Source: Candidatus Woesearchaeota archaeon
GTDB lineage: Archaea; Nanobdellota; Nanobdellia; Woesearchaeales; DSVV01
Direction of reading: 5' to 3'
NCBI GenBank assembly: GCA_018303325.1
Contig: JAGVYH010000067.1
Span: forward strand, 4,167 to 68,166
Length of the DNA stretch: 64,000 bases
Shown here: positions 12,266 to 63,695 of the stretch, in pieces
Layout: the number at the start of each line of letters is the position of its first letter
How positions within the stretch are numbered: the stretch's first letter is position 1
Notes under the pieces: model-generated
Seen by the model: the letters and a program-made list of their open reading frames with translations, nothing else
Database searches by the model: none
Told to the model about the DNA's origin: nothing
Translations under genes and position numbers: made by a program

Positions 12266-12458
12266 GTTATTAAGTATGTATTAAGCCTACCCTAATTTTG
12301 TCAGCTTTGCTATCATATCTCGTAAGACTATCAGGAAAGCGAAAACCATCGGTAAACTCAAGTTCCTTTGCTATAATGTTCGATTATTTTGCACTTTTAG
12401 TATAAATAATCAGGTTTTCGCCAAAGCTGACTGGTAGGCTTAATACATACGTTATTAA
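12266..12458 (+). mobile_element. MITE (family B, copy B1) inserted between L4 and L23: 18-bp perfect TIR plus 8-bp TSD
   Basis: TIR is GTATGTATTAAGCCTACC (12274..12291) pairing with GGTAGGCTTAATACATAC (12433..12450). Direct repeat GTTATTAA flanks it at 12266..12273 and 12451..12458. The internal core shared with B2 and B3 is TGTCAGCTTTG...TCTCGTAAGACTAT...GCGAAAAC...GTTTTCGC...CAAAGCTGAC. Confidence 0.8.
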
Positions 12459-12524
12459 TTGTTATTATTAGTTTTGATTATGGTTTTTAATTTGTTTTTT
12501 GTTTTGACTTATTTTTATGCAAAT

Positions 12525-13328
12525 TTAGGATATAAACAATTTTTCCTTGTCTAATCTTTCAATTGCACTTTCTGTGAATAATGTCAGTCTGCCTATCTTA
12601 CAGCCAGGTGCAAGCAATTCAGCATTAAGTTTTGATACTTCAACAACATCAATGCCCGGCAAATTAAGCTTTGATAAATTACATTCTTTCGATACCACTA
12701 ATAATGGCCCTTTTCTCTTCTTGTATTTTCTTCCTCTCATTTTGCCTTTACCAGCCCTTACTTTTTTTACTGCTGCTCTGGTAAGGTCTTCTTTAAAACC
12801 CAATGTTTCCAAAATATTCTGAAGATTTTGTGTTTTGGTTATATCTTCAAGTTTGTTCTCGACTATAAACGGATAATCTTTTGGTACTTTGTGCCCTCTT
12901 TCTTCAACCAATTGGGGAACAAGTGTTGCAGCAAGTGCGCTTCTTATCGCTTTTTGCCTTTCTTTTCTGTTGATTTTAAGGTTCCATTGTTTGTCTGCTT
13001 TTGGAGGATGAGATCTTCTACCGCCAACTGTGCCTGGAGCAACTGCACCAACCCAGTTAAATCTTATTCCTCTGTGCGACATAATTTTTCTAGGAACTCT
13101 TGAAATACCATGACCATAACTTGTTTTATACCAATGTCTTCTTCTTGAAATCTTTGCACTCTGTCTTTTACCAGCTTCTGTGAAAGCACCATATGGCTGC
13201 CTTTTATTTGACCAAATTGAAAAAACAGCCCTCTCTATTAAGTCTGACCTGATTAATTCACTGAATTGCACAGGCAGTTTCTTTTTTCCGACGCTGGTTT
13301 TTGTTATTGAATACACAGGTAATTCCAT
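12525..13328 (-). CDS. rpl4: 50S ribosomal protein L4 (uL4)
   Basis: Archaeal uL4/L1e family sequence at the cluster position. Confidence 0.9.
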   Translation of the reverse strand: MELPVYSITKTSVGKKKLPVQFSELIRSDLIERAVFSIWSNKRQPYGAFTEAGKRQSAKISRRRHWYKTSYGHGISRVPRKIMSHRGIRFNWVGAVAPGTVGGRRSHPPKADKQWNLKINRKERQKAIRSALAATLVPQLVEERGHKVPKDYPFIVENKLEDITKTQNLQNILETLGFKEDLTRAAVKKVRAGKGKMRGRKYKKRKGPLLVVSKECNLSKLNLPGIDVVEVSKLNAELLAPGCKIGRLTLFTESAIERLDKEKLFIS

Positions 13329-13393
13329 TTTATATCCTCATGACATTTTGTTCATACTACATTTATATTAATATTACATTGAATTTAGTATAT

Positions 13394-14401
13394 TTACTTA
13401 CCTTGACTTGAATCTAAATGAATATAATCTATTGCTGGTGCTTCTTGCGGTGATTTATTTCCAGTAGTTCTGCTTGGGAAATTAAATCTTAATAATCTTT
13501 TTTTATGCCCTGAAAGCGAACCTTTGATTAAGACATAATCACTTTTTACAAGACCATAACTTAAAAATCCGCCTTTAGGATTAATCTCATCTACTTTGTC
13601 AGATATTTTTAATAGCCATTTATTATATTCAGTTCTTGTGTGAAAACCCATCCTTCCTGCATGTGCTACTCTGTACATCATATGTCCTTGGCCTCTCCAT
13701 GCACCTAAGCTACCTGGACCTCTTTTGGTTTTTTCTGCTTTATGCTGTCTTATCATAACACCAAATCTTTTAACAGGACCTTGGTAACCTTTACCTTTGG
13801 TTACGCCGTGAACATCTAATAATTGACCCGACTTGAAAACTTCACTTACCCTGATTTCCTTGCCAACATGTTCTTGAACATATTTCAACTTTTCTTCGTT
13901 TGGACCGCCAAGAGCTAATTCAAATACTTCTGGCTTTTTTTTACTGACGCCGGCAAGTTTTGGCTGTGTATAAACATTTATGCGAACATCATCATAGTCA
14001 GTGATTGCGATACTATTCAATTTTTCCTGTGATTCTTGTGCTGATATTTGTGTTTTTGGCAAACTAAGTTTTCTGCCTAATTCTTTATCGGCGTTAAACA
14101 TAATCTCTTTTTTTAGAACCCATTTATTTACATCATATTTGTAGAACCGAACAGAAAGAATCTTTAAAGGGGGGCATTCAACAACAGTAACCGGACAAAA
14201 AAGCTCCTCACCTTTTGTTTTGGATGTTTTTTTGTTATCTATAATAATAGTGTGTGTCATACCAACTTTGTAGCCTGCAAATCCTAATGGGGTTGCTTGT
14301 GCTACAATAGGCCAAGACCTAACTCTGGGATAAATTCTTATTGCCTGTTTTCTAGGCCAAAACTGCATTGAGCCTGCCCTTGATTTGTGTGGTTGTCCCA
14401 T
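13394..14401 (-). CDS. rpl3: 50S ribosomal protein L3 (uL3)
   Basis: uL3 sequence (FKAGMTH-like GYKVGMTH), first gene of the cluster. Confidence 0.9.
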   Translation of the reverse strand: MGQPHKSRAGSMQFWPRKQAIRIYPRVRSWPIVAQATPLGFAGYKVGMTHTIIIDNKKTSKTKGEELFCPVTVVECPPLKILSVRFYKYDVNKWVLKKEIMFNADKELGRKLSLPKTQISAQESQEKLNSIAITDYDDVRINVYTQPKLAGVSKKKPEVFELALGGPNEEKLKYVQEHVGKEIRVSEVFKSGQLLDVHGVTKGKGYQGPVKRFGVMIRQHKAEKTKRGPGSLGAWRGQGHMMYRVAHAGRMGFHTRTEYNKWLLKISDKVDEINPKGGFLSYGLVKSDYVLIKGSLSGHKKRLLRFNFPSRTTGNKSPQEAPAIDYIHLDSSQGK

Positions 14402-14866
14402 TTTAAACCTTTAATTTGATTTTTTGTTAATTTTATCCTTTAATTATATTATTATTTTAATTTAATTGATTGTTTATTATGTTTATTGTATTTCTTATTT
14501 ATTTGCTGTAATTTTAGACTCTTATCTCTAGGCCTAGGTAGGTTTCAATAGTTTAAACAGCCTATTGATAGCGCTTTTCAAGAAGATAAGTTGTAACATA
14601 AACGATTTATGTAAACAACATATTAGGTTGATTCGCTTTTTCAGGCCTAAGTTATTGTCTATACGCATTTAATATTATTAGATTTAAATGCTGTCTAATG
14701 ATATTTTAGGTAAAAATGGTAGGTTATTTATAAAGGTTGTTGTTTTGTGTAGATGTGTGTGTTATCTCTTTTAAGAATAATGCTATGCACATATTGTTTT
14801 TATACCTAAATTCCTAAATTGTCAAAAATTAGGGTGTTTTGAGTATAAAAAACAAGATAAAAAAAG

Positions 14867-15028
14867 CGGGCCTGATGGGATTTGAACCCACGACCTATTC
14901 AGCGATAATAAGCACGAATTAAGTTACACACTCATTATCTCAGCTTAGAAGGCTGTCGCCCTATTTGCATTACGTGTAAACCCATTAAATTTAGGAATTT
15001 ACAGGTATCCAGGCTAGGCTACAGGCCC
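14867..15028 (-). tRNA. tRNA, probably tRNA-Arg(UCU), carrying two putative introns (~44 nt in the D-loop region and ~45 nt at the variable-arm/T-arm junction)
   Basis: Acceptor stem GGGCCTG/CAGGCCC with discriminator G. T-arm GTGGG-TTCAAAT-CCCAT. Anticodon stem-loop CAGC-CTTCTAA-GCTG, giving anticodon TCT with U33 and A37. Total 162 nt, so ~90 nt of intervening sequence. Confidence 0.6.
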
Positions 15029-15122
15029 ATATGAATAAAAAAGTAGATAATAGTTTATAAAGTTAATGAAAAGTTCAGTAATAAATATTGGAATGAAGAA
15101 TTAGAAATTGGTTTTATTCGTT

Positions 15123-15311
15123 CTATTTTCCACGTATATTCTCAAATTTCAACGGCTCTCTGCAATAATTGCAATGCATCTCTAAAAAACATTCAACAAG
15201 CCAAGATTCAACATCATTAGTCATATTGCAGGATTTACATTTAATTGAAATATATTTTAATGTGTTGCCATCTTCGATTCCATAGGGTAATCTTTGAATT
15301 ATATCAACCAT
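15123..15311 (-). CDS. Small zinc-ribbon protein (62 aa), hypothetical
   Basis: CKSCN...CNYC with four Cys in two CxxC pairs. No homology recognised. Confidence 0.3.
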   Translation of the reverse strand: MVDIIQRLPYGIEDGNTLKYISIKCKSCNMTNDVESWLVECFLEMHCNYCREPLKFENIRGK

Positions 15312-15524
15312 TGCTCACCTGCCGTTTCTGTTTTGAGTGAGCCAGATAGTTGTTTATTAAAGTTTGCATTAGTAGTACTATTGTGTATAATGTTACAGAT
15401 AGTAGTTATAACACAATATCGAAAAAGCGTTATTAAACACAAAATCGACAATAAATATTTATATAACTTAATTTAGAATAACCATTGTAAAGGTAAATGA
15501 GATAAATAAATGAGGTGAATCTAG

Positions 15525-17195
15525 TTGAGAAAAGCTCAAAGTGCTGCAGGAGCAGCAGGATTAGTTGCATTACTAGCTGTTTTTATTGTACTATATATGT
15601 TATTATTGCCGCCGCAGGAAAGGGCAAATTTGCTTGGTGAACAATCTACAACAGGTACAGGCAATGGCGCAAACCAAAACTTGCCATCCGGCGCATTTAC
15701 TATTAATAAGACTGCTTTAACAGCTTCTCCTGGAAGAATTGAATATCTTAAATTCAGCTCTTACGATCATCCTTTACCTGCTGTAAATTTATACACGACA
15801 ACAAGCGCAAAAATATTGGCTAAGGAAGAGTCGTTATATATTAAGAATGGTATCTTTGATTTTCTGTCGCGAAACGTAACATTTAAAGTTGCAGATTTAG
15901 AATACACTGACAATGTTTTGTTATCAGCAAATACTGAAAAAGCACAGGGTAGATTAAGGATTTATTTAAACAATGTTGTTATTTATGACGGCGACGCAAA
16001 TCCTCTGCCAGTGATAAATATAGACAAAGAGTTTCTCCAGGCAATGAACACTATTTTGTTTGAAGTCAGCCCTGTTGGCTGGAAATTCTGGACAACAAAT
16101 GAGTTCACTCTGACAAAATTTCAGGTAACAGCAAATGTGATGGATGTAAGCGAACAAACAAGCAAGACATCATTTATCGTAACAGACACTGAGAAATTTA
16201 ATTTAGAAAAAGCCGCATTAAGATTTTTCCCTGACTGCAATCCAAGTGACGTCGGTAAATTAAAAATTTATTTTAATAACCAAAATATATATTCCTCTAT
16301 ACCTGACTGCTCGCAGTTAAACCAGCTTGATTTGTCACCTGATTTAATGTCGAGCGGCACTAATGATGTAACCTTCAAAACAGATAAAGGATATTATACT
16401 GTCTCACAGCTAAATGTCCACACTGAATTGAAAAAACAAACATATCCAGTATATTATTTTGAATTGGATGAAAGATTGTTTGTTGGCGAAGAAGAAGACA
16501 CAAATGCATGTGGAGAGGTTGACGGCGTCTGTCCTGCTAATTGCGATGAAGATCTTGACAGAGATTGCTGTTTTGAAACAGGCAACAAATACTGGTGCGA
16601 TGTTGTGCCAAATGAAGAAGGCGACAGATGCATCGCAGTTGTAAGCAAAGATGTTTGTGGACGATGTTTAACTGGGTATGAAGACAGCACTAATAATGCT
16701 CCTGATACATGTAAAAGCCTTTGTGGTGATGATAAAGACAATAAATGTCCTGTTGGCTGCAGTAAGAATTATGATAAAGATTGCTGTTTTGCAGACAATA
16801 CTGACAATTATTGGTGTGATAATGTTCCAATCTATGGCATAGATCAGGTATGCAAACATTCTCTGACACAGTCACAATGTAAAGATTGCGCAGGAAAATA
16901 TAAAACAAAAACAGGCGAAAGTTATAGTTGTGAAGATGAAGAAGAAACAGATATTAAAACACTAAGAGATGATTTTGAGGTGTTTATTATGTTTAGGTTC
17001 CTTGACGATAAAGAGCATAAGGCAGCAAATATTTATGTCAACGGCCACAAATTTTATCTTGACACTTACAAAGGCGAATATAAGAAAGCTGTAAGCAATT
17101 ATATTGGGCCTGGAAGCAATGCAGTCAAGATTGAGCCTGACATAAGCACATTGGACATTATAGAGCTAAAAATAGAAGTGCAACCAAAAAAGTAA
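15525..17195 (+). CDS. Secreted or surface Cys-rich protein with an archaeal pilin-like (class III) signal peptide; TTG start
   Basis: N-terminus (M)RKAQSAAGAAGLVALLAVFIVLYMLL. SD GAGGTGA lies 9 nt upstream of TTG. Two internal copies of the Cys module CPxxC..D.D.DCCF....YWCD.VP. Confidence 0.7.
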   Translation: MRKAQSAAGAAGLVALLAVFIVLYMLLLPPQERANLLGEQSTTGTGNGANQNLPSGAFTINKTALTASPGRIEYLKFSSYDHPLPAVNLYTTTSAKILAKEESLYIKNGIFDFLSRNVTFKVADLEYTDNVLLSANTEKAQGRLRIYLNNVVIYDGDANPLPVINIDKEFLQAMNTILFEVSPVGWKFWTTNEFTLTKFQVTANVMDVSEQTSKTSFIVTDTEKFNLEKAALRFFPDCNPSDVGKLKIYFNNQNIYSSIPDCSQLNQLDLSPDLMSSGTNDVTFKTDKGYYTVSQLNVHTELKKQTYPVYYFELDERLFVGEEEDTNACGEVDGVCPANCDEDLDRDCCFETGNKYWCDVVPNEEGDRCIAVVSKDVCGRCLTGYEDSTNNAPDTCKSLCGDDKDNKCPVGCSKNYDKDCCFADNTDNYWCDNVPIYGIDQVCKHSLTQSQCKDCAGKYKTKTGESYSCEDEEETDIKTLRDDFEVFIMFRFLDDKEHKAANIYVNGHKFYLDTYKGEYKKAVSNYIGPGSNAVKIEPDISTLDIIELKIEVQPKK

Positions 17196-17403
17196 TAAAT
17201 TAAGGTTTATTTCTTTTATTTGTTTATTTATTTTATTAGTAGAAGTAACTAGTATTATGACAACTTAATTTTGTAACATATTAATACAGGTACCTTTTGG
17301 GTATTATGCAGTTATTTGTCTGAAAATTAAATTGTCAAGCTGCTAGCAACATAGTTTATAATACTTATTTGTGTTGTTGTATAGTTATTAATATTTATTA
17401 TTT

Positions 17404-18492
17404 ATGGGTGTGATAAAAATTTTAACAATAAAAGTTCCATTAAAAGATGCCAACAAGGTTAAAACAATTCTTATAAGAAACGAGAATCTTGACAACAGTT
17501 ATAAAACATTAAAAGAAGGATTATTTGTTTATTTCCCTGTAAAAACCCTGTTTAAAACAAAATATGAACTCATTAATAAAGAGCTAGAAACACTTGAGCA
17601 TCTGCCGCATTCACTTAAAGATGCACTTAAAAATATTCTTACAAAAGATGAGCTGGAAAAAGTCAAGACAGCATATGATTGTATAGGAGATATAGCTATA
17701 TTAGAGATTGATCGAGAACTCAGAAAAAAAGAAAAAGAGATTGCGAACGCTTTATTAAATATAAGAAGAGATATTAAAACAGTTGTAAGGAAAGAAGGCA
17801 GCCATGAAGGAACATTCAGAGTTCAGAAAATGAAATATCTTGCTGGAGAAAACAGAAAGGAAACTATACATAAAGAAAACAATATCAGATTAAAATTAGA
17901 TATAGAAAAGGTATATTTCTCACCGAGGCTTTCACTGGAAAGAATGAGGATTGCTGAACTTGTCAATACTTCAAAGAGCAGAGAATCAAAGAATAAAAAG
18001 TCAGAGAAAAAAGAAGATATTCTTGTAATGTTCAGCGGATGCGCGCCATATTGCTGTGTCATTGCAAAAAATGCGGCTGAAAAAATAAATTCAATAATTG
18101 GTATTGAGATTAACCCTGAAGGCCATAAATATGGTATAGAAAACATTAAATTAAATAAGCTTGACAATGGGTGCAATATAAATTTAATTAATGGCGACGT
18201 AAAAAAAGAAATTCCTAAACTGGCAAAGATGGGAAAAAGGTTTGACAGAATCCTTATGCCTCTGCCAAAACACGCTGAAGATTTCCTGCCAGAAGCATTA
18301 GCTGTCAGCAAAAAAGGAACAATTATTCATTTTTATGATTTCTTGCACGAAGAAAAGTTTAATGATGCCTTAGAAAAAATAAAAAAAGTGTGTGATAAAG
18401 CAAAAAAGAAATGTAGAATACTGAAAATAGTTAAATGCGGCCAGCATTCTCCAAGAACATTCAGGATTTGTGTGGATTTTGAAGTAATGTGA
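17404..18492 (+). CDS. trm5: tRNA (m1G37) methyltransferase, Trm5/Taw2 (Met-10+) family
   Basis: Class I SAM-MTase of the Met-10+ family. DCIGDIAILE, VMFSGCAPYCCVIAKN, GIEINPEGHKYGIENIKLNK. Confidence 0.7.
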   Translation: MGVIKILTIKVPLKDANKVKTILIRNENLDNSYKTLKEGLFVYFPVKTLFKTKYELINKELETLEHLPHSLKDALKNILTKDELEKVKTAYDCIGDIAILEIDRELRKKEKEIANALLNIRRDIKTVVRKEGSHEGTFRVQKMKYLAGENRKETIHKENNIRLKLDIEKVYFSPRLSLERMRIAELVNTSKSRESKNKKSEKKEDILVMFSGCAPYCCVIAKNAAEKINSIIGIEINPEGHKYGIENIKLNKLDNGCNINLINGDVKKEIPKLAKMGKRFDRILMPLPKHAEDFLPEALAVSKKGTIIHFYDFLHEEKFNDALEKIKKVCDKAKKKCRILKIVKCGQHSPRTFRICVDFEVM

Positions 18493-18551
18493 GATAGTGA
18501 ATAAGACTACAAACGAATTTCAACAAAATTATTTACACCACCCAAAAATTA

Positions 18552-19172
18552 TTAAATTCTATAGTTATTATTTCTTATTGACATTCCTGTTGAATCAAAT
18601 TCAGCTTTAAATCCTCTTTTCATTACATATTGCCCAAAATCATAAATGACTTTGGCCATCGCAAATGTTATTGCCCCGTTAGGATATTGTTCTTCTATCA
18701 ATGCTCTCCTTTGGTCGGTTGTCTCAATTGCTCTTTCAATTGTTGAGAATTTTTCCGATTTAGGAAGAAAATCATTTATTTGATAGGGATGAAATCTAAC
18801 TAACAAACCATATCTTGGCTTATTACCATAGTACAAGTAAGTTCTATTAACTTGAACAATCACAATTTTATCATCAACATTATAATAGTTTACTTTACTA
18901 TGATACTCATATCCAACATCATTTTTTTCAAATGATTCTCTTAAACTAAATGTTTGAGGAAAAAATTCATCAGAAGTTGCTGATGCTTCAATGTCAGACA
19001 CCACTGTTTTAAATATATTTTCCTTCTCGTCAAATTCATCATCATCTTGGCCATAAAAAACAATAGAATAATTATCTAGAATTCTAAATTCTAATTTTAA
19101 TTTTTCTTCATCTTTAACCTCTAACGCTGATTTAAGACCATTTAAATAATCTTCTAAATTAATTTTCGCCAT
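18552..19172 (-). CDS. Hypothetical protein (206 aa)
   Basis: Long ORF with host-like composition. No recognisable motif. Confidence 0.5.
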   Translation of the reverse strand: MAKINLEDYLNGLKSALEVKDEEKLKLEFRILDNYSIVFYGQDDDEFDEKENIFKTVVSDIEASATSDEFFPQTFSLRESFEKNDVGYEYHSKVNYYNVDDKIVIVQVNRTYLYYGNKPRYGLLVRFHPYQINDFLPKSEKFSTIERAIETTDQRRALIEEQYPNGAITFAMAKVIYDFGQYVMKRGFKAEFDSTGMSIRNNNYRI

Positions 19173-19419
19173 AATAAATGTAAGTTAAGGTCATTAATAA
19201 ATATTTACTTTGTGGTTTCATGTTATGCTCCAAAATAAATTGCTTATCATCGTGAAAAGATATATAAACTATAATCGAATACATCTATTGCGCGCGATGA
19301 GATTGTGAACACCATGAGAGCGAAAGCAATGATCGACGGAAGTAACTTTCGAGCGCGCAACTTATATCTTAACTTTTTGGTTTGTTTAGTTGGTTGCATG
19401 TTTCTTAGCTTTTTTCTTG

Positions 19420-19680
19420 TTCTCGTCATGTTTTCTGCCCACACCCTGTTTGTGGGACGCAGTCCACAGTCACATGAATAAAAATGTAAGAAGGTTTGAA
19501 GGTCAGATGGTTTGATGGTAACGACTGATTTCCGTCGTTCCATTCGTAGTACCTTCAGACCATCAAACCATATTACCATCTTACCTTTTTTAGTGAACGA
19601 GTTGGACATGCCAGGAACGAAACAAACAAGTAGAATATAAAAATAATTATAGGTAGGGTAGCTGCGTCCATAAACGAAAA
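19420..19680 (+). repeat. Repeat family A, copy A1 (TIR-bounded MITE-like element with a ~50-bp central hairpin)
   Basis: 5' box GTTTGTGGGACGCAGTCCACAGTCACATGAA at 19449. Central hairpin gtaagaaggtttgaaggtcagatggtttgatggtaacgac...gtcgttccattcgtagtaccttcagaccatcaaaccat. 3' box GTGAACGAGTTGGACATGCCAGGAAC at 19593..19617. Inverted 5' box ...GCTGCGTCCATAAAC at 19661. Confidence 0.75.
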
Positions 19681-19772
19681 AAACAGACACATTTCAAAAA
19701 CATTTAAATAGTATAACCTACTAAGGACTAAACTAAGAGTAATAAATAACATCATAAAAAGAGGTTATATTA

Positions 19773-20207: not shown

Positions 20208-20368
20208 CTAGCTAAGTGTGTATCCAGAATATAAGAACATAAAGCAAAGCGCAAATTTTATAAACCATTTATCCTTTAATTATTTATCTTTTAATTATCT
20301 CATAAAAATCAGAAAATGAGAAATGCGTAAAAAAAGTAAACTTAGAATCAAAAAAAGAGGTACAAATA

Positions 20369-20680: not shown

Positions 20681-20682
20681 AA

Positions 20683-24209: not shown

Positions 24210-24386
24210 AATCAAAAAATTGAAAGATAATTATGATGATAAACCAAACATTATAATAATTATAATGTCGGACATAAATACTTATACAAATAGTTATGTC
24301 CGACAAATATAGTAAGTGACATGATTTGTCTAAAAATTTAGGTCACTTACTATAGTTTATAATAATCCACAAGATTATAATAATCA

Positions 24387-25135: not shown

Positions 25136-25235
25136 AATAGAGAACTTTGAAAAACTTTATAAAAATGGGTTTTTCAAAGAGCTCTATTAAGGGTTTTGAC
25201 TATTTTAATAAGTTATTCAAAACCCTCAATAGTAT
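25136..25235 (+). repeat. Repeat family C, copy C3
   Basis: ATAGAGAACTTTGAAAAAC...TTTTCAAAGAGCTCTATTAAGGGTTTTGACTATTTTAATAAGTTATTCAAAACCCTCAATAG, between TyrRS and SDR. Confidence 0.7.
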
Positions 25236-41248: not shown

Positions 41249-41299
41249 CCCATTATTTTCTTTCTAAACAAACTCGATAATAGTATAGTTTTAAGTTTT

Positions 41300-41402
41300 A
41301 TAATATACTAAACCATAATTAGTTTTTCTAACTAATTATGGTTTGTATATACAAAACGGAAATGAAAGTTCGGAATTTCATTTCCGTTTTAGTATATTTA
41401 AT
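41300..41402 (+). repeat. Repeat family D, copy D4: two perfect hairpins inside ATATACAAAA...TTTTAGTATAT arms
   Basis: AAACCATAATTAG-ttttt-CTAACTAATTATGGTTT, then gtatatacaaaaCGGAAATGAAAgttcggaaTTTCATTTCCGttttagtatattta. Confidence 0.6.
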
Positions 41403-42627: not shown

Positions 42628-42880
42628 TCACAATCTTGTTTCTCGTTCTCAGCTGGTTTGTGGGACGAAGTCCACGATTACATGAAAAATTAAAAAAGGT
42701 GCTGGGTGCTAGGTGCTGGGTGCTAGTTACGATGAATTATCGCTGCTAGCACCTAGCACCTAGCACCCAGCACCTAGCACCTAGTTTTCATAGTGAACTA
42801 TTTGGACATGCCAGGAACTGAACAAAAAACTTAAATTAGTGAACAATGGCTGCGCCCCTGAACTAAAAAACAAAAGAAAA
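42628..42880 (+). repeat. Repeat family A, copy A4 (central hairpin is a 29-bp perfect GGTGCTGGGTGCTAGGTGCTGGGTGCTAG palindrome)
   Basis: CACAATCTTGTTTCTCGTTCTCAGCTGGTTTGTGGGACGAAGTCCACGATTACATGAA...GTGAACTATTTGGACATGCCAGGAACTGAAC...GGCTGCGCCCCTGAACTAAAAAACAAA. Confidence 0.75.
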
Positions 42881-44286: not shown

Positions 44287-44559
44287 ATGATCACCGCACA
44301 AATAATAATAAATGGTTTGGTTCAGGGTGTTTCTTTTCGCTATTATACAAAAAAAACTGCTTTATCTCTTGGCTTAACTGGTTTTGTAAAAAATTTAAAA
44401 GATGGTTCTGTTGAGATTGTTGTTCGAGGTAATAAAGATAATATCAACAAATTAATTAATTGGTGTAAAAAAGGCTCTGAACAGGCAAAAGTTGAAAATG
44501 TAAAAATTAAAGAGATTAATTTAATAGAAAAGTTTAATCTTTTTGAAATAAGATATTAA
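44287..44559 (+). CDS. acyP: Acylphosphatase
   Basis: INGLVQGVSFRYYTKKTALSLGLTGFVKNLKDGSVEIV. Confidence 0.8.
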   Translation: MITAQIIINGLVQGVSFRYYTKKTALSLGLTGFVKNLKDGSVEIVVRGNKDNINKLINWCKKGSEQAKVENVKIKEINLIEKFNLFEIRY

Positions 44560-44571
44560 AAAGTATTGATA

Positions 44572-53893: not shown

Positions 53894-54202
53894 TAAATGT
53901 TTTGAGTTTGAGTATGCGCATAGCTCTTTTAAGGATTATGCTGCTGTCTCAAATTTGTTTTCTGAGCAGTTTTATTCGTAAGATATCAAGTGACCGAAAA
54001 CTTATAAGATATTCATTATATATAGTAAGTAACCTAAATAATTGTATAGTTCGTGTTACTTACTATATACGTGGACTTTAACTAAATAAATAATAATATT
54101 AAAGTCCACCACTATGCTTGTAGAGAATGAACAATCGTGTTTTCGGCGAAGAAAACTGACAGTAGCATAATCCCAATGAGAGCTATGCGCATACGAGTTT
54201 GA
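53894..54202 (+). mobile_element. MITE (family B, copy B3): 16-bp perfect TIR plus 8-bp TSD, ~290 bp, highly structured interior
   Basis: TIR is GTATGCGCATAGCTCT (53902..53917) pairing with AGAGCTATGCGCATAC (54179..54194). Direct repeat GAGTTTGA flanks it at 53894..53901 and 54195..54202. The interior shares ...TTCGTAAGAT...CCGAAAAC...GTTTTCGG...AACTGACAG with B1 and B2. Confidence 0.75.
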
Positions 54203-54259: not shown

Positions 54260-54661
54260 TTACCTTATCAATTCCTCAAACAACAACCCTTTCCTTTTCG
54301 CCAATACTACTGACACGGAATATCCATTCTCTGTCTCTTTTATATCTTCCAATGTCAGAAAAAACCATTCTTTCAAATTTATTCTTATACCAATCCATGG
54401 TTCAGCGCCGAATCTTCGGCCAAATTCTTTTAATTCATTAATTTCTTTTTTTTCAAGATAAATATTATCTTCTTTCGAAGATTTACATTCTATTGCCAAT
54501 TTTCTCAATGAATTTCCTGCAAGTACATCAGGTGATGGATATCTTGAGCATCCGCTGCCGGCAGCTCTTATAGCTGACCAAGAATCAGTATTCCAGAAAA
54601 GATGAATCAGTTCACGTTCAGCATTAATACCTTTTGATTTTCTGTTCATTTGCATCACCAC
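54260..54661 (-). CDS. hjc: Holliday junction resolvase Hjc
   Basis: KGINAERELIHLFWNTDSWSAIRAAGSG...LAIECKSSK, the archaeal Hjc PD-(D/E)xK signature. Confidence 0.85.
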   Translation of the reverse strand: MVMQMNRKSKGINAERELIHLFWNTDSWSAIRAAGSGCSRYPSPDVLAGNSLRKLAIECKSSKEDNIYLEKKEINELKEFGRRFGAEPWIGIRINLKEWFFLTLEDIKETENGYSVSVVLAKRKGLLFEELIR

Positions 54662-55199: not shown

Positions 55200-55507
55200 T
55201 TTTTGCTTTTTGTGATTTTTTCAATCTTTTTTCTCGTTTTTAATTACAAACTGGGTATTATACAACAAAATGCTTTGAATTTTGTGTACATTTGAACTAT
55301 GTTCAAATTGTACCCCGCAGCTTGCTGCGACACCCAGTTTGTAATCTTAAAAATGCCGGTCACGAAGTGACAAATTCGTCGTATACAACAAAATGCTTTG
55401 CATTTTGTGTGCATCTGAACTTGTTCAGATTCCACAGCTTGCTGTGGTTGGGTAGTCGAATTTGAGGCATTTTTTTTGATTCAGTTTACTGAATTCAATT
55501 CATCTTT

Positions 55508-55680
55508 CCACAATCAATCTAGTTTTCCGCTCTCAGCTCGTTTGTGGGCGAAGCCACACGTCTCATGAAATATTTTTAAAGTTTTTTTAATAGTTTTATC
55601 GAAAGAGCAATACCGTGTAAATAAACTAAAATATCATCATGAGACGTGGGACTGCGTCCCTAGTACTAAAAAACAAACGA
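55508..55680 (+). repeat. Repeat family A, copy A5 (near-perfect TIR of the dyad box)
   Basis: 5' end CGTTTGTGGGCGAAGCCACACGTCTCATGAAAT. 3' end TCATCATGAGACGTGGGACTGCGTCCCTAGTACTAAAAAACAAACG. The 3' end is the inverted complement of the canonical 5' box. Confidence 0.75.
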
Positions 55681-55701
55681 TAATAAATTATACCAAGAAT
55701 A

Positions 55702-56622: not shown

Positions 56623-56684
56623 ATATTAAAGATAAGAAAGGTTATATATAAAGTTTTCATCATCTTTTTGGTGGGTTATTATTG

Positions 56685-56900
56685 TTCTCATCATGGTTTC
56701 TGCTCAAAACTTGTTTGTGGACAAAGTCACACATCACATGAATAAAAATGTAAGAAGGTTTGAAGGTCAGATTGTTTGATGGTAACGACTGATTTCCGTC
56801 GTTCCATTCGTAGTACCTTCAGACCATCAAACCATCTAACCTTCTTACCTTTCTTCGTGAACTAGTTGGACATGCCAGGAACGACTAAAAACAAAAAAAA
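56685..56900 (+). repeat. Repeat family A, copy A6 (same central hairpin as A1)
   Basis: CTGCTCAAAACTTGTTTGTGGACAAAGTCACACATCACATGAATAAAAATGTAAGAAGGTTTGAAGGTCAG...GTGAACTAGTTGGACATGCCAGGAACGACTAAAAAC. Confidence 0.75.
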
Positions 56901-56990
56901 TTAATTATATAATATTATCTTTCACAAAGTGCCTCTTTCACAAAAACTCGACAAAAACTTTATAAGCAAAACATAGTTTTATACTTACTT

Positions 56991-57521
56991 ATGGCAAAGA
57001 CAATAGTAACTGGAACCATTGTTGGTGAAAGAATTATCACAGAAGACAGTGATGAAGCCAGAGAATTTTATAATCAAAGCAGATATGGCGCTATTGTCAA
57101 TAATAAAGTAGAGTTAAGTCTGCTGGAAGCATTATATTTAATGGAAAAAGAGCGTCTAGAAATAAAAACAGAGAACGGAAAAAAAGTTAATTCAGAACAG
57201 TTCATTAAAAAAGCGAAAAAAACAGACCCTAATTTTTGGATAAGATATTGTGTCTTTAAAGATATAAGAAACAGGGGATACATAATAAAGACTGCGTTAA
57301 AATTCGGCGCAGATTTCAGGGTATATGACAGAGGCATTAAGCCAGGAGAAGACCATGCAAAATGGGTTGTGTTTCCAGTGCATGAGGCATACGCACTAAC
57401 ATGGCATGATTTTGCTGCAAAGAACAGGGTCGCGCACAGCACCAAGAAAAGATTATTGCTGGCAGTTGTCGATGAAGAAGGAGATATTTCTTACTGGGAA
57501 TCGCGATGGATACGGCCGTAG
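56991..57521 (+). CDS. endA: tRNA-splicing endonuclease EndA
   Basis: Catalytic C-terminal domain: YIIKTALKFGADFRVYD...HAKWVVFPVHEAYALTWHDFAAKNRVAHSTKKRLLLAVVD. Confidence 0.85.
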   Translation: MAKTIVTGTIVGERIITEDSDEAREFYNQSRYGAIVNNKVELSLLEALYLMEKERLEIKTENGKKVNSEQFIKKAKKTDPNFWIRYCVFKDIRNRGYIIKTALKFGADFRVYDRGIKPGEDHAKWVVFPVHEAYALTWHDFAAKNRVAHSTKKRLLLAVVDEEGDISYWESRWIRP

Positions 57522-57563
57522 ATTAATATAAATTAACTATAACTTAATTATATTATTAATCAT

Positions 57564-60500
57564 TCATATATCTTCTAAACTTTCTTCTATTCTAATTTCT
57601 TGAATTTTTTCTTGTTGTAATAGCTTTAACGAATAATTTCTGCTTGCTTGTTCAAATGTTTCAGTTACGTATGATGGTAAAAGCAGCGAAATGTGATCTT
57701 CTCGTATAAATCTTCTTTTTTGACTTCCTTTCTTGTCTATCTCCATCCAAACCACTAAAGAATCAATATCATGCCTATTTTTTTTACCTGCGCACCCATT
57801 TATAATACGGTGATACCTTGCAATTAATTCCATCCTGTCTAATCTTCTTTTATACTGTCTTAATCTAAATATTTCTTCAACTTCCGTTATACTAAAATAT
57901 CTTTTTCCATCGAACGCAACAAATTCTAACCTTCCTTTTTCGTCTTCAACAATTCTTTCAAGATTGGTTGTATTCATCCTTCTTTTTAAGTCTTCAATTA
58001 TCATATCTGTTTTTTTCGTATCGGTAAGTGGTTTAGGAGATTGTTCTTTCTTTGAATCCTCACTTGGCTTGTTACGACGTTCTGAATACAATGGTTGTGT
58101 TTTAGTTATAAATCTGTACACTTTTTCTATTGGAATCGGTTTAAACGAATAACCTCTCGCAACATCTTCAAATGGTTTATCTGCAATTCCTTTAAAAATA
58201 TCATCTATGCTTTCTTCCTTAATAAACCACCTTGCTCCCTTATACCTGCATTTTTGCACACCTTTCCCAACATATACTTTAAATGCCTTGCGTGTTGGTG
58301 CATTTCCCCCTTCACGAATTCTTCCCCACACTTTTTTTGCATATTTTAATTTGTCTTTGGGCCAGTTATAAACATCATATACTGCGGTCATTACAAAATA
58401 TCTTTCTCCATCTACTGCTAAAAATTCAAGCGTGCCTTTTTCACTTCTAACCTTTCTTTCTAAACCATCATAATTTAACCTCTCAAGATCAACATTTTCA
58501 TTATATGACCTTAATGTTTCAATTATTTCTTTAACATCAACCAATTCCTTTCTTCTTGAAGGATGTTGTAATTTTCTCAATGCCTCTGCTTCTATTTGCC
58601 TTATTCTTTCTCTGGTGACAGCAAAATCCTGCCCAACTTCTTCTAATGTATGATCATCCTCTTCACCTATTCCAAATCTCATTCTTAACACTTTTTCTTC
58701 TCGTGGGTGTAATGTTGCAAGAACTCTTGTTAGTTTCTCATGAAGATTTTTATCGCTTACAACCACATCAGGTTTTGGTGCTGTTTTATCTTCAATAAAA
58801 TCACCAAGCTCGTCTTTTCCATCTTCATTAATCTTTGTTTGCAACGAAATTGGCTCTTTTGCTACTTTTTGAATCTTCTTAACTTTCTCAACAGAAATTT
58901 CCATTTTTGCTGCAATCTCTTCTGAATTTGGTTCTCTTCCCAACTCCTGAACAAGATACCTTGTGGTTTTTACTAACTTATTTATTATTTCGATCATATG
59001 CACAGGAATTCTTATTGTCTTTCCCTGGTCAGCTATTGCTCTTGTAATTGCCTGCCTTATCCACCATGTCGCGTATGTTGAAAATTTATACCCTCGTTCC
59101 CATTCATACTTTTCAACTGATTTCATTAACCCAATATTACCTTCTTGCACCAAATCTAAGAATTGTAACCCTCTGTTTGTATATCTCTTTGCGATGGAAA
59201 CAACTAATCTTAAGTTTGCAGTCGTCAAATCTTCTTTAGTTTTTTCATACCTCCTTCTTTCTCTTTCTATCGCAGAGACCCGTGCGCCAATATCCAAAGC
59301 TGCTATTCCTGTTTCTTCTTCGTATTTTTCGATTCTTGTGCAACTTTCATTATATTCGCTATTATCTCTTGTTACCTTTCTTCCTTCATGCGTTTCTTTA
59401 TACCTTTCTTCATATTTCTCTTTCTGCTTCACTGTGTTTGAATAATCTCTAACATATTTAAGAACCTCTTCCTCAAATTGCTGACGCCAATTATAATATA
59501 TTTTTCTCACAGATGCAAAAAATAAGATATCCTTTTGACTAATATCTTCGAATGAGGTATAAACTGTGAACCTATCATCTGGCGCATTTTCCTCTTTTTT
59601 TACTCCCTTCTTATCCTTTTCCTCTTTAAACCTAGAATAAATATCTGCAAATAACTTGAAAATAGCAGATTTATTGTTTAATGCATCTTTATCTTCCCCT
59701 ATATCTTCAGTCTCTTCAATATCTTCATCCTCGTCAATTCTGTGGGGTGAATAAACAGCACATGGTCGTATTTCACCATCATTTATTTTCTTTTCAGCTT
59801 CTTTTAATTTATTGAGAGAGTAATTTAATCCATACAATAATTTAGCATAATTTAACAAGTACATATCTCTTTTCTTTCCAAGTTCTATCTCTTTATCGCG
59901 GGTTAATAAATCAATATCCCCCATCTGCCTAAAATATGTCCTCACCATATCTTTTCCAGCGCCTTTTTCTAAGTCAGCATCCTTTTTTGTTATTCCCTCT
60001 TCGCTTCTTTCTTCTCTTTCTGGTTCTATATGTTCTTCACTTGCAAACTCTTGCTCATCTTCAGGTAGAGTTTTATCTATTCGTGATTCCAAAAATTTCA
60101 CATATTTTTCGATTTTTCTTTCTTTTGCAGACAATGCACGAGCATCTTGTTCTGCTTTACTTACAACCTCTCCTTTTTTTTCTTTAGCATCTTGTTTTCT
60201 TAAAGGAAGAATATGCACAGTAGCGCCTTTTGTTGTCGTGTCTGCTTTTTCTTGTCTGTGTTGTTCTGCTCTTTCAACACTTTCACAATACGCTTTAAAT
60301 AAATCATCTAATAATTCTTTGCTTGCATTAAAAGATGTTTTGTATAATGATGTATTAATGGCATTAAGCGCCCCAAGAACTTGTTTATAATCTAAAAAAG
60401 CACCTTCGCCAAATATTTTCAGCATTAGCCAATTTTTCTCAACCCAGACATAAGAGGGGTCGTCTCCTTTCCATTCACTTTCAACTTTTGCTATAAACTC

Positions 60501-60893
60501 TTTAAAATATTCCCTCAAACTAATCATAGCAATGCTTAAATCTTTGTTTCTGTCATTTCCAACTTTACATGCCTTAAAATATACTTGTTTAGAAATTAAT
60601 TCCTTTTCCCCGCCGACAACACCAAAACTTTTAACAATATCATCTATGCTGAAAAACCCAAACTCTCCAACTTTTTCTTTTTCAATTGCCTGTCCAAGTT
60701 TCATTCCCTGTGTACTGTAAAGTGTTTTAAACAAACCAGGATATACTGCATTAACAATATCTATATCATCAAAACTAATGCTATGGAGAGCAGGAATTCT
60801 TTGATAGAAAACATAATCTTGTTTCAGCTTTTCAGCTGTTAACGACAGAGACCTATCTTTACTTTTCAAAAAGTATGAGATTACGTCGCCCAT
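57564..60893 (-). CDS. 1109-aa multidomain protein containing a complete bacterial-type primary sigma-70 (RpoD-like regions 1.2, 2, 3, 4; approx. nt 58550..59950), plus unique N- and C-terminal extensions with a repeated motif
   Basis: Seen in translation: [27 protein letters not shown] (region 1.2). [82 protein letters not shown] (region 2). [14 protein letters not shown]...[27 protein letters not shown] (region 3). [48 protein letters not shown] (region 4). These match E. coli RpoD nearly residue-for-residue in the conserved blocks. The C-terminal extension has two copies of LEF(L/V)A(V/F)DG(E/K)RYF. Confidence 0.8.
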
Positions 60894-61025
60894 GGTAAAA
60901 TAATGCTTATAATAAGTTTATAAATCTACCTAATTTTACCCCGCACATTTTGGCGATTGGGTAATTCATTTGATTGTATTTTTGAAATGGATTCAAGAAT
61001 ACAATTTTTAGGTTTAATACCATAC

Positions 61026-63296
61026 TTAACTTTGTGTCTCTTTAAGGAATGAGGTTAAATTTACTAATTCTTCTGCTCGAATACCTTTTGGTGAATCATC
61101 ACCTAATTCAGGTATAGTTGCTTCTAATTTCAATTTTCCGTCGCTAACTAAAAGTTCACATGCAGCAGTGATATCCCCCATAGAATACCCTAATCTGCTT
61201 GGCAAATCATCATAAGGGATTAAAGGGTTTGCGTCTTGTGGTAATGTAAGTTGTGCACTATCTACTTCTGCTGCAGTAATGGCAGCAGCTTCTAAACCAC
61301 TTTCAGCTTCTGCAGTATCCTCTACACTCTCACTATCTACTGATATTTGTCGTGCTGCATCCCTTTTGCTTTTAGACACAGTATATAATCCATATTTTTT
61401 CATCTCACTAGTCAAGCTTTCGACATCAACACCAACTAAAGAAATTGCACTTAATGAATATCCTTTAATTAAATCGCTAAATTGGTCGTCAACATATTTT
61501 GGCAGGGCAGGCTGTACATAATCTTCCCTTACAAAAGCAACTGTTTTTCCTTGAGATGATTGAAGGCCTTCCACTTTTAAGTACGTCCCTTCCGGCAGTT
61601 TTCCAGTACTTTGCAATATACATATATTTGCAGGATAAGAACTACTTGGAACTTTCTGACCATCATATTCTCTTTCACTGTACACCTTTCTGACTTCTTT
61701 CGCTTTGAAATATCTTTGTCCATTAATTGCCAAGAAATATAATGTTTCTGCGCCTTCAACAGTTTGTTCTAACCCTTTTGCGCTTAACATTTCTCCTAAT
61801 TCAACAGGAATTTCTTGTGGTGATCTAGTCGTTTCTGGTCGCGCTTTTCTTTGTACTGCTGGTAGTGCTCTTACTCTTTCTGTTCTCTCGATTCCTTCTG
61901 CTTTTTTTGGTGCTTCTGCTTTCTCTACTTTTGCAGCAGAACTATTATCAACATTTCGTCCTACTAATGGCTGTGGCCTATATCCGCACACACTGGTACC
62001 ATTATCTGCTAATTTTACTGCTTTATATTTTCCATCATATTCCATTGATTTACTTTTTCTTTTAGAATCTACACTTTCTCTTACTTTTTCTGGTAGAAGT
62101 CCAACTAGTGCATCTTCTCTATAAACTTTTGTTGAATTACCTTTTTCTCTTTTTACTGCCTTAACTTTACCTTGTTGCTCTAATTCTAACAATATTTGGT
62201 TAGGGATTAGATTATAACCTAACTTAGAGTAATCAACACCAAGAAACTTTGCTGATTCTGGCGCTGAATAATAACGTTGGCCTCTTATTTCATAATAAAT
62301 TGCGGATTCACTCGAAGGTTCACTTGTACTTTTTGCGCCCTCATCTGCTTCAGATGTTCTCTCAACTTTTTTAACTACTTTGTCTATACTTCTTTCCTCA
62401 CCAACAACGTGATAATTATCTTGAGATGCTGGTTTTGGAGTAAATTCACTAAAAGTGTCCTTAAGAGTATGATGATACTTCTTAGGTAAAATAGTTTCAA
62501 ATATATCAAAGGAATATACTCCGCTCCTTTTTCCTTTGTAAATAACATCCTTTTCTTTTCCATCTCTTTCTAGCTGTGTTCTTTCTTTGTCATCAACACA
62601 CCTGCCGATATATTGATGCAACGCACTTATTGATGTCTTAAACATATCTGCTATTTCGCTAATGCGATAATACTGCTCGCCCCCAATCTCAAAACATAAA
62701 ACTTCTTTCCCCTTCTTTGCTTTGCCTAATACCTTTCCAGTATCAGTTCTCTGTGGTTGCGTGTGTGTTGGCTCAGTTCTTTGTTCAACTCTTCCGAGCT
62801 TTCTTACTTTTTCTATAACTTCGTTTCCAGCAATAAGTTTGAGTCTAGTATTTAAAAATCCAATATATTCTGTTACACGATTTAATGCTACATCCATAGC
62901 AGCTTTTTTTACAGGATCTTTGTCCGATACTTCGCAACTATTACAAAGATATAATATTTCAACTTCTTGCAATCTTTCTTTTGCTAATTTTAATCTCTCT
63001 ATCACCTTGCCTTTTGCATATGTTTCAGCATTTTTTTCAAGAGAGCCAGCAAAATCAATCAAATTAGAATACTTTAAAACAACAAAATTATAATCTGCTA
63101 CTACTTCTAACTCTATATCCGCAATTGCAAATTCTTGTGTTACCTGAACATCATGAACCTTTTTTGAAGCGCTGTCTATTTTGTCTAAAACTGTTAAGAC
63201 TACCTGCTCGTTTACTTTTGCATTAAGAACATCTTGACTTACACCGAATAATCTATTTGCTTCGCTTAACATCTCTTCAAGTTTCATTGCTACCAC
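61026..63296 (-). CDS. 756-aa protein with three copies of the same (I/L)xGxxY(Y/F) repeat motif found in the sigma-fusion protein. Composition departs from the host (Ala/Glu/Val/Ser-rich, locally higher GC).
   Basis: EVLCFEIGGEQYYRISEIADMF, AIYYEIRGQRYYSAPESAKFLG, TLYFLAINGQRYFKAKEVRKVY. Co-oriented with the 57564 gene, 132 nt upstream of it. Confidence 0.6.
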   Translation of the reverse strand: MVAMKLEEMLSEANRLFGVSQDVLNAKVNEQVVLTVLDKIDSASKKVHDVQVTQEFAIADIELEVVADYNFVVLKYSNLIDFAGSLEKNAETYAKGKVIERLKLAKERLQEVEILYLCNSCEVSDKDPVKKAAMDVALNRVTEYIGFLNTRLKLIAGNEVIEKVRKLGRVEQRTEPTHTQPQRTDTGKVLGKAKKGKEVLCFEIGGEQYYRISEIADMFKTSISALHQYIGRCVDDKERTQLERDGKEKDVIYKGKRSGVYSFDIFETILPKKYHHTLKDTFSEFTPKPASQDNYHVVGEERSIDKVVKKVERTSEADEGAKSTSEPSSESAIYYEIRGQRYYSAPESAKFLGVDYSKLGYNLIPNQILLELEQQGKVKAVKREKGNSTKVYREDALVGLLPEKVRESVDSKRKSKSMEYDGKYKAVKLADNGTSVCGYRPQPLVGRNVDNSSAAKVEKAEAPKKAEGIERTERVRALPAVQRKARPETTRSPQEIPVELGEMLSAKGLEQTVEGAETLYFLAINGQRYFKAKEVRKVYSEREYDGQKVPSSSYPANICILQSTGKLPEGTYLKVEGLQSSQGKTVAFVREDYVQPALPKYVDDQFSDLIKGYSLSAISLVGVDVESLTSEMKKYGLYTVSKSKRDAARQISVDSESVEDTAEAESGLEAAAITAAEVDSAQLTLPQDANPLIPYDDLPSRLGYSMGDITAACELLVSDGKLKLEATIPELGDDSPKGIRAEELVNLTSFLKETQS

Positions 63297-63430
63297 CCTT
63301 AATCTAATTATTTACTTTTTCAATATTATTTGTAGGAGAAGTTCAACACTAATTTATAATAGTTATGATTGTATTTTGTATACATTTCTTATTTTATAAC
63401 GACATGGTAACAAAATAAGTATTTGTTTTA

Positions 63431-63695
63431 CAAATTAAGCAACTACTAAGCCTGCCTCAAATTTGTCAGCTTTGCTATTGTATAGCAAATGCACTAAATT
63501 TTCGTAATTAGTCGTTGCATTTGCTATGTTGAATGAACTGAACTATATTGATAAGTAGTTTTAGTTCATTGGCTAAATCTCGTAAGACTATAGAGGAAGC
63601 GAAAACACTTGAATAAGTCATTTGTTCTTTATAACCTGCTTATTCTGCGGGTTTTCGCAAAAGCTGACTGACAGGCTTAGTAGTTGCCAAATTAA
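63431..63695 (+). mobile_element. MITE (family B, copy B2): 16-bp TIR plus 8-bp TSD
   Basis: TIR is GCAACTACTAAGCCTG (63439..63454) pairing with CAGGCTTAGTAGTTGC (63672..63687). Direct repeat CAAATTAA flanks it at 63431..63438 and 63688..63695. Conserved core TTTGTCAGCTTTGCTAT...ATCTCGTAAGACTATAGAGGAAGCGAAAAC...GTTTTCGCAAAAGCTGACTGACAGG. Confidence 0.8.

Follow-up and report, generated by a model that had tools for sequence, protein, structure and literature searches.

A family of miniature inverted-repeat elements with 8-bp target-site duplications in a Woesearchaeota genome

What are three short loci with matching inverted ends doing in the genome of an archaeon, one of them in the middle of the ribosomal-protein operon: are they mobile DNA, the templates of a conserved RNA, or both? 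The loci—B1, B2 and B3, here called family B—lie in a 64,000-nucleotide stretch of contig JAGVYH010000067.1, referred to below as the window, which belongs to a Woesearchaeota genome. An earlier note, made from the sequence alone, took them for transposable elements of the miniature inverted-repeat type (MITEs) that also encode a conserved RNA structure. Family B displays every MITE-defining feature that we tested apart from an identified parent, and as a whole it is best explained, very probably correctly, as a MITE family mobilised in trans by a DDE-type transposase, with arms that are maintained at the level of the DNA.

The ends of the three copies, and the direct repeats that adjoin them, are arranged as follows, where '+' stands for the printed orientation of B1.

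12266..12458 (+): B1, complete MITE including both 8-bp target-site duplications (TSDs), in the L4–L23 spacer and antisense to the operon; nhmmer E = 1.3e-40 against the family profile
12266-12273 and 12451-12458 (+): B1 TSD GTTATTAA, perfect 8-bp direct repeat
12274..12291 (+): B1 left terminal inverted repeat (TIR) GTATGTATTAAGCCTACC, 18 nt, pairing perfectly with the right TIR at 12433-12450
12433..12450 (+): B1 right TIR GGTAGGCTTAATACATAC, 18 nt
53904..54202 (+): B2, putative distant relative of the family, including its 8-bp duplications, between the genes for Hjc and PRPP synthase
53904-53911 and 54195-54202 (+): B2 TSD GAGTTTGA, perfect 8-bp direct repeat
53912-53927 / 54179-54194 (+): B2 outer TIR GTATGCGCATAGCTCT, 16 nt, perfect
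53933-53948 (+): B2 inner stem GGATTATGCTGCTGTC; outer TIR and inner stem make up the left arm, 53912..53948, with its partner arm at 54158-54194
63431..63695 (+): B3, complete MITE including its 8-bp duplications; TIR subtype GCAACTAC
63431-63438 and 63688-63695 (+): B3 TSD CAAATTAA, perfect 8-bp direct repeat
63439-63456 / 63670-63687 (+): B3 TIR, 16 nt perfect, 17/18 overall

The perfect TIRs of 16–18 nt first described for the three copies are all present (in B3, 16 nt are perfect and 17 of 18 pair overall), and so is the different, perfect 8-bp direct repeat beside each. The limits first given for B1 and B3 stand; B2 had been started 10 nt too far to the left, at 53894 rather than 53904. 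The same signature was sought blindly, as perfect 8-bp direct repeats abutting perfect inverted repeats of at least 10 nt, 60–4000 bp apart, in the window and in about 120 kb of related loci. There were nine matches, and all nine were family B, those in the window being exactly B1, B2 and B3. Because the scan returns family B alone, a chance origin of the TIR-plus-TSD signature is excluded.

Pattern scans located copies on six contigs of the Woesearchaeota metagenome-assembled genome (MAG) JACQSP01 and on eight contigs of metagenome Ga0209211, and two more, L121 and L134, in two other metagenomes. (The pattern used on genome contigs specified 16 bases; most of its 118 matches were chance ones, in bacteria, and the real ones are those on the six JACQSP01 contigs.) At least 14 copies occur beyond the window, in the related MAG and in groundwater metagenomes, and at least 17 in all, on separate contigs. 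They measure 151–283 bp, and no open reading frame (ORF) is contained within any of them; ORFs of at least 50 aa that touch an element enter it from the flank, and seem spurious or extended too far.

Perfect TIRs recur in nine full copies in addition to B1–B3. Perfect 8-bp duplications, each different, flank L014, L120, L127, L129, L136 and L137, while those of L085 and L132 match at 7/8 bases. Altogether the duplication is perfect in nine copies and matches at 7/8 bases in two more, and the octamers are all different. The insertion sites are AT-rich intergenic octamers, with exactly 8 bp duplicated, and no link between TIR sequence and duplicated octamer was seen among the copies compared. 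Most of the further copies, then, have kept both TIRs and TSDs, and the octamer that differs at every copy cannot be part of a longer conserved element. As for the exceptions, the duplication of L005 has decayed; L047 has the ends of two different subtypes and no duplication; and in L121 (1935-2087) an identical element links the left flank of L120 with the right flank of L132, which indicates either that copies have recombined or that the assembly is chimeric at the repeat. These—one decayed, two chimeric—look like the products of decay or recombination. Type-1 copies are 92–99% identical to each other, so that the subfamily was amplified recently; between subfamilies the difference is 15–20%. 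A strain variant, L169, has an extra copy, of GTAAGTAA type, near the position corresponding to 55200 of the window, and its contig ends inside the element.

The strongest evidence for the mobility of family B is a pair of orthologous sites, one empty and one filled.

44556..44563 (.): empty target site TTAAAAAG; the orthologous JACQSP01 site, L094 5653-5804, holds a family member with the same octamer on both sides

From 44552 to 44570 the window reads uninterrupted as GATATTAAAAAGTATTGAT, and its filled counterpart at L094 lies in an 8-kb block that is 82–88% identical. Comparison with a related genome had been put forward as a check on the MITE interpretation, and this is the one empty site that it yielded. 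Together with the further copies and their own duplications, it bears out the view that these are MITEs with true 8-bp TSDs.

The basic unit of the family is about 151–153 bp long. Its 18-bp TIR stem, P1, is followed by an asymmetric internal loop with 8 nt (YYMAWTTT) on the 5' arm versus 1 nt (T) on the 3' arm, and then by P2, a 10-bp stem GTCAGCTTTG/CAAAGCTGAC. Next comes a one-sided segment of about 30 nt that carries an invariant mini-hairpin, TCTCGTAAGA, and then P3, an 8-bp stem GCGAAAAC/GTTTTCGC which, on the 3' side, stacks directly onto P2. The innermost part is a variable hairpin. In B1 the core is placed as follows.

12300-12309 (+): P2 arm GTCAGCTTTG, in the 5' half of the conserved core (12300..12347)
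12318-12327 (+): small hairpin TCTCGTAAGA, in the same 5' half
12339-12347 (+): P3 arm GCGAAAACC, in the same 5' half
12413-12431 (+): partner arms of the core stems

Three TIR subtypes occur, sometimes together in one genome: GTATGTAT in B1 and five Ga0209211 copies; GCARCTAC in B3, L127, L094 and L133; and GTAAGTAA in JACQSP01, this last being read in L014, L085, L006 and L047. The termini of the subfamilies are GTAAG, GTATG and GCAAC. A variant of the family is found at L005 7198-7407 and L047 1645-1855, where a long hairpin of about 125 nt, made of GTCGT-rich repeats (GTTTGTCGTTAGTCGTAGGTCGTTTGTCGTAAG), takes the place of the TCTCGTAAGA segment and of P3's 5' arm.

B2 stands apart. A profile for nhmmer built from nine core copies recovers B1 at E = 1.3e-40, B3 as two strong pieces, and B2 as two colinear segments with E = 0.29 and 0.35, so that B2 would be a distant relative of the B1/B3-type family, of marginal homology. 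It keeps the architecture, the unpaired motifs CTCAAATTTGT and TCGTAAGA, and CGAAAAC/GTTTTCG, and has GTTTTCT/AGAAAAC for P2 and CCGAAAAC/GTTTTCGG for P3. The stem GGATTATGCTGCTGTC, at the position of the B1 and B3 TIR, is internal in B2; an extra 16-bp stem, GTATGCGCATAGCTCT, forms the true ends, both arms being extended symmetrically by about 21 nt. Several details of the core as first described need amending in consequence. The stem TGTCAGCTTTG/CAAAGCTGAC, ascribed to all copies, is found in B1 and B3 but not in B2, which has GTTTTCT/AGAAAAC there; the loop TCTCGTAAGAC is likewise conserved in B1 and B3, B2 having TTCGTAAGAT instead; and the compensatory G/C swap credited to B3 was assigned to the wrong copy, CCGAAAAC/GTTTTCGG belonging to B2.

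The three window copies all exceed the basic unit in length, since each has another mini-element nested in it.

12372..12404 (+): nested double-hairpin remnant in B1; in other assemblies of the locus the element is intact, and 67 nt longer
54019..54115 (+): nested double-hairpin mini-element in B2; over 53 nt, its identity with solo copies in L085 and L006 is about 88%
63483..63575 (+): 93-nt double-hairpin insertion in B3, between P2 and the hairpin TCTCGTAAGA; L127 and L094, its closest relatives, lack it

L140 (3879-4122), L141 and L143 represent the same locus as B1 with the nested element intact. The 67-nt piece missing from the window consists of most of the nested double hairpin plus 8 nt of B1; the shorter form is either a real deletion haplotype or the result of palindrome collapse in assembly, and several contigs of the population end inside B1. 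L129 also carries a nested mini-element, and in L133 a double hairpin abuts a truncated family B copy. Solo mini-elements are present as well, at 24262-24361 (-) and 41285-41396 (-) in the window, at L085 6392-6495 (-) and at L006 1354-1447 (-). They are about 95–110 nt long with two hairpins each, whose stems are completely different between copies yet complementary. Their scaffolds are conserved, for example TATAG-hp1-CTATATACG-hp2-CCACTAT or TATACTAAAA-hp1-TTTTGTATATACAAAC-hp2-GTTTGGTATA, and their duplication is possibly TA, which is ambiguous in AT-rich flanks.

How would such elements move? It seems most likely that the element ends are bound by a DDE-type transposase whose gene lies elsewhere in the genome, and which cuts the target with an 8-bp stagger and inserts the element. 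The complementarity of the arms—near-perfect, almost purely Watson–Crick, and different between subfamilies—would be kept at the DNA level: the arms might match because both ends serve one transposase, or because hairpin-templated (quasipalindrome) correction homogenises them, or for both reasons, and selection on an RNA would not be needed. The loops of the elements may in turn be targets for the second family, the double-hairpin mini-elements of about 90–110 nt. B1 would have landed, antisense, in an rpl4–rpl23 spacer of about 110 nt, and would probably be a passive, if strong, hairpin in the polycistronic transcript.

Mobilisation in trans, as already proposed in the earlier note, is supported insofar as the copies are all non-coding and a transposase could not be detected in the window. 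Pfam reveals no transposase domain in 20 ORFs of the window that were scanned, six of which, five of them longer than 300 aa, match no Pfam entry at all; nor is there a transposase among 10 ORFs adjoining copies (Pfam), or as a multicopy ORF among the fetched loci. No autonomous parent emerged from the blind TIR-plus-TSD scan, which reached up to 4 kb, and four scans of viral contigs, with the 3' core and the three TIR types, gave single chance matches only, each without a partner arm. Two 427-aa ORFs beside L133 and L047 were considered as transposases and rejected, being unrelated and devoid of domains.

Several insertion sequence (IS) families make 8-bp duplications. The earlier note had hAT, IS1595 or IS4 in mind, but the ends of these families—YARNG, GG... 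and CA/CT, respectively—do not fit the G(T/C)A... of family B. IS66 elements are 2.5–2.7 kb in length, and coding. In the GTDB taxonomy, Woesearchaeales belong to the phylum Nanobdellota. Nanobdellota have all 27 of the annotated IS families, IS66 among them (PMC13343696), and a passage in PMC11946415, citing Ross et al. 2021, gives the ends of IS66/ISBst12 as starting GTAAGCG, with 8-bp direct repeats. Family B termini read GTAAG in one subfamily, and match the IS66 end motif at 5/7 bases at best. Judged from termini and duplication, an IS66/ISBst12-type enzyme would be the best candidate parent, as a lead only.

A handful of observations nonetheless tell against the explanation just given. 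Five terminal octamers, each mirrored perfectly on the other arm, coexist in single genomes, and these are not easily explained by sequence-specific recognition of the ends by one transposase. Even in B2 the sequence of the one-sided 30-nt segment and of the 8-nt bulge is retained, while the adjacent stems change with compensation; a folded single strand would fit this better than two sets of protein-binding sites would. The elements are not oriented at random with respect to genes: gene starts are faced by the left end in 12 of 15 cases and by the right end in 5 of 14 (Fisher p = 0.025), a hint of some constraint or function connected with transcription. In the window, the fetched loci and the viral contigs, no autonomous element was found whose ends match. 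And the match to the IS66 motif, 5/7 bases, is limited to one subfamily (GTAAGTAA; compare GTATGTAT in B1 and GCAACTAC in B3).

As to orientation, copies between co-directional genes are antisense to them in seven of eight cases (binomial p = 0.07), and B1, B2 and B3 all conform. The bias might stem from a promoter or leader that points outward in the left end, from a polarity effect, or from an insertion bias linked to replication. T-runs, the archaeal terminator signal, were rejected as its cause, being similar in both orientations.

Does the element, then, encode an RNA? The named structure is 97.9% paired over 11 core copies, and its covariation is all in P1, where 9/18 pairs have changed on both sides (26 cells), with one-sided changes in 2/198 cells. 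P1 is the TIR, however, so its arms must match anyway on DNA-level grounds. P2, P3 and the mini-hairpin are invariant in the 11 core copies, which are of B1/B3 type, and hence give no covariation signal, neither for nor against structure. G·U pairs in the minimum-free-energy folds of 15 copies number 48 on the (+) strand versus 42 on the (-) strand, 1–7 per copy, where a functional RNA would be expected to confine them to one strand, and by hand count the wobbles in P1 are four in one orientation versus two in the other. B1 folds at -59.3 kcal/mol as mRNA-sense RNA (z = -7.25), and as single-stranded DNA at z = -7.12; fold energies are similar on the two strands, and the significance is equal, z about -7, for both RNA strands and for single-stranded DNA. 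Rfam has no match at gathering score in the window, and none at E <= 1 that overlaps the copies in L014, L127 and L136. Only the comparison with B2 speaks for structural selection, in that B2 keeps the unpaired motifs and has compensated changes at three pairs of P2 and at one of P3. Invariant core stems, no strand preference of G·U pairs and no Rfam match leave the proposed conserved RNA structure unsupported; the claim is unproven, and a DNA-level explanation of arm matching is more likely.

Candidate RNA motifs were also considered, and rejected. The internal loop, 8 nt versus 1 nt, is not the 3 + 3 around a 4-bp helix of a bulge-helix-bulge substrate for tRNA-splicing endonuclease. Box C/D, K-turn and hammerhead-like motifs (CUGAUAG, CGAAA) are unconserved across copies and have no Rfam support. 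And TCGTAAGA does not read as a GNRA or UNCG tetraloop, since GTCA and GCAA variants occur and neither strand is favoured.

It is unlikely, in our estimation, that the MITE also carries a functional structured RNA under selection, whether a hairpin that acts in cis on processing or stability, a small RNA, or a module that bears a promoter. The TCAAATTT bulge and TCGTAAGA, as conserved loops, would then serve as functional sites, and compensatory evolution would preserve the stems. B2 agrees with this, in that CTCAAATTTGT, TCGTAAGA and CGAAAAC/GTTTTCG persist there while P2 (three pairs) and P3 (one pair) change with compensation; but this is the only covarying comparison, it depends on a single distant sequence of marginal homology, and among the 11 core copies there is zero covariation in P2, P3 and the mini-hairpin. 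The strong fold of B1 in the mRNA sense (z = -7.25) has to be set beside G·U pairs that are rare, about 2–8% of pairs per copy, and equal on both strands, and beside the silence of Rfam. In favour of such a function are the orientation bias—seven of eight copies alike between co-directional genes, left ends toward gene starts (p = 0.025)—and the several copies that lie 3–50 nt from a start codon, in or beside promoter or 5' untranslated space if the starts are right, the ORFs having been called with their most upstream start. Against this, T-run content fails to explain the bias, and insertions of about 90 nt are tolerated at different places in the supposed structure.

A wider proposal, that family B and the nested mini-elements together are shape-defined mobile hairpins handled as folded single strands, or promoter or processing signals recruited by the host, we regard as a long shot. 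Both kinds of element hold their scaffold and loop sequences constant, while stems can vary so long as the two arms complement each other exactly. If the first alternative were true, the elements would be recognised, copied or repaired as folded strands yet integrated with a fixed 8-bp stagger, a combination that to our knowledge no described transposon family displays. If the unpaired motifs were outward-facing promoter or processing signals, the orientation bias toward gene starts would be explained.

Taken as a matter of mobility or maintenance only—movement through folded single-stranded DNA, hairpin or cruciform, recognised by its shape and with arms copied from each other—the idea seems very improbable, and would imply a route of mobilisation that classical MITEs do not take. 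The single-strand transposons that depend on hairpins, IS200/IS605 and REP/RAYT systems, are not known to make a target duplication, and the fixed 8-bp duplication of family B is a hallmark, instead, of DDE transposases acting on double-stranded ends. What speaks for such copying is the symmetry of the arms. The subfamily octamers GTATGTAT, GTAAGTAA, GCAACTAC, GCAGCTAC and, in B2, GTATGCGC differ, yet each is mirrored exactly; nine pairs have double changes, and only 2 of 198 cells a one-sided one; the extension of about 21 nt in B2 is symmetric on both arms; and the nested double hairpins repeat the pattern, with a conserved scaffold and different but complementary stems. But template-switch correction of quasipalindromes in ordinary replication can homogenise arms, too, and the chimeric copy L047 shows that arms can mismatch. 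The fold of the single-stranded DNA (z = -7.1) fits the idea. Finally, that the loci are chance or functional inverted repeats such as terminators, with flanking repeats that are part of a longer motif, can be dismissed almost entirely: short AT-rich direct repeats are common in an AT-rich genome (about 32% GC), but the blind scan found the signature at family members only, the duplicated octamers differ at every copy, and the octamer is single at the empty orthologous site.

The insertions of family B can be read against the genes around them.

11974..12237 (-): gene for ribosomal protein L23, its start 36 nt from the left end of B1; PF00276 on a gene of the same length at the corresponding position in loci L140/L141
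12525..13328 (-): gene for ribosomal protein L4, its stop 74 nt from the right end of B1; PF00573
52992-53921 (-): gene for PRPP synthase, on one flank of B2
54260-54661 (-): gene for Hjc, on the other flank of B2

All three copies are intergenic, B3 lying upstream of a 756-aa ORF without known function, and the gene calls place B1 between L4 and L23, as first reported. B1 is antisense to the operon; in the ribosomal-protein transcript it would therefore be the reverse complement of the sequence given in the earlier note, whose statement that B1 'must' be co-transcribed was too strong: co-transcription is likely, but an internal promoter is possible. A relative with a 75% identical L4 has an L4–L23 spacer of only 5 nt, and no element. 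In the lineage of the window the spacer was about 110 nt before the insertion and is now 287 nt, or 354 nt in other assemblies. The insertion of B1 is identical in all assemblies of the population, and so is that of B2, from which it follows that both are fixed.

The window comes from a Woesearchaeota (DPANN) genome, that of an uncultivated groundwater archaeon. Ribosomal-protein genes L3, L4, L23, L2, S19 and L22 lie on the minus strand, accompanied elsewhere by other genes of archaeal type (Hjc, histone, tRNA-splicing endonuclease, Orc1/Cdc6, RFC, FEN1 and PolD). GC content is 30–36% in the window. The best named homologues of L4 are from Candidatus Woesearchaeota; the exact L4 protein recurs on 24 contigs from aquifer-type metagenomes; and it is to a contig of the Woesearchaeota MAG JACQSP01 that the 8-kb stretch mentioned above is 82–88% identical. 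An ORF of 1109 aa at 57564-60893 (-) is out of character, in that an identical product has precomputed Pfam matches to bacterial sigma-70 regions 2, 3 and 4, unexpected for an archaeal genome.

Other repeats share the window with family B. At 55244-55700 a unit of about 95 nt (CCACAGCAAGCTGTGG...GCATTTTGTTGTATA) occurs twice in tandem, with ATTACAAACTGGGT / ACCCAGTTTGTAAT on either side of its second copy; being 92% identical to L129 10436-10615 and L137 11542-11721, the two represent another repeat family. The strain variant L169 lacks 50 nt of this region, with its extra B-type element beside it. A 221-bp repeat, internally palindromic (AAGGTTTGAAGGTCAGAT / ACCATCAAACC), occurs at 19411-19629 and 56676-56894 with 89.6% identity, and twice in L136 too (177-365 and 2002-2179). 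It is probably another MITE-like family, and perhaps the 'family A' of the earlier note. Near-identical short palindromes, TATTAARGGTTTTGACTATTTTA / TAAGTTATTCAAAACCYTCAATA, lie in two intergenic regions, at 3694-3760 and 25184-25232, and a GC-richer, imperfect palindrome of AGGTGCTGGGTGCT-type repeats, with 37-nt arms that are 89% complementary, at 42697-42784.

Family B provides a copy-by-copy record of MITEs active in a DPANN archaeon that is uncultivated and has a small genome, one insertion having become fixed inside the conserved L3–L4–L23–L2 ribosomal-protein operon. Several assemblies break inside B1, which bears on the assembly and binning of these genomes. Mirrored but variable arms, and mini-elements stacked within elements, make a natural data set on the evolution of palindromes through selection, transposase constraint and template-switch correction. 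There is a caution here, also: perfect 'compensatory' changes in the inverted repeats of a transposon are no evidence for an RNA.

As far as we found, family B has not been described individually in the literature, in a comparison that did not extend to the sequence lists of the archaeal MITE census, where one Woesearchaea genome has 105 MITEs/Mb, a very high density (PMC11602168). With prokaryotic MITEs in general it shares small size (150–280 bp), non-coding character, intergenic location, TIRs, a TSD of fixed length, dispersal, and the lack of a transposase of its own; it differs in the perfectly covarying arms of its subfamilies and in its nested mini-elements. IS66/ISBst12 elements resemble it in their 8-bp duplication and, for the JACQSP01 subfamily, in the start GTAAG, but no transposase gene was found for family B, which begins GTATG or GCAAC in its other subfamilies. 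The MITEs SM1–SM4 of Sulfolobus and those of haloarchaea are non-autonomous IS derivatives with TIRs, duplications and an identified parent IS; here the host is a DPANN archaeon instead, and the parent only a candidate. REPINs, made up of REP hairpins in inverted pairs and mobilised by RAYT (IS200/IS605-like) transposases, are intergenic hairpins with compensatory changes in their arms, much like family B; identity with them was rejected, the duplication in family B being strictly 8 bp, whereas REPINs are not known to make a TSD or to have TIRs bounded by one. Closest in situation, perhaps, are the Correia elements of Neisseria, the ERIC/IRU elements of enterobacteria and the palindromic elements of Rickettsia, which form whole-element hairpins between the genes of operons and are carried in mRNAs. 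Correia and ERIC elements can affect the processing or stability of the mRNA, ERIC in an orientation-dependent way. These elements differ from family B in their bacterial hosts, in their duplications (TA for Correia) and in their unrelated sequences.

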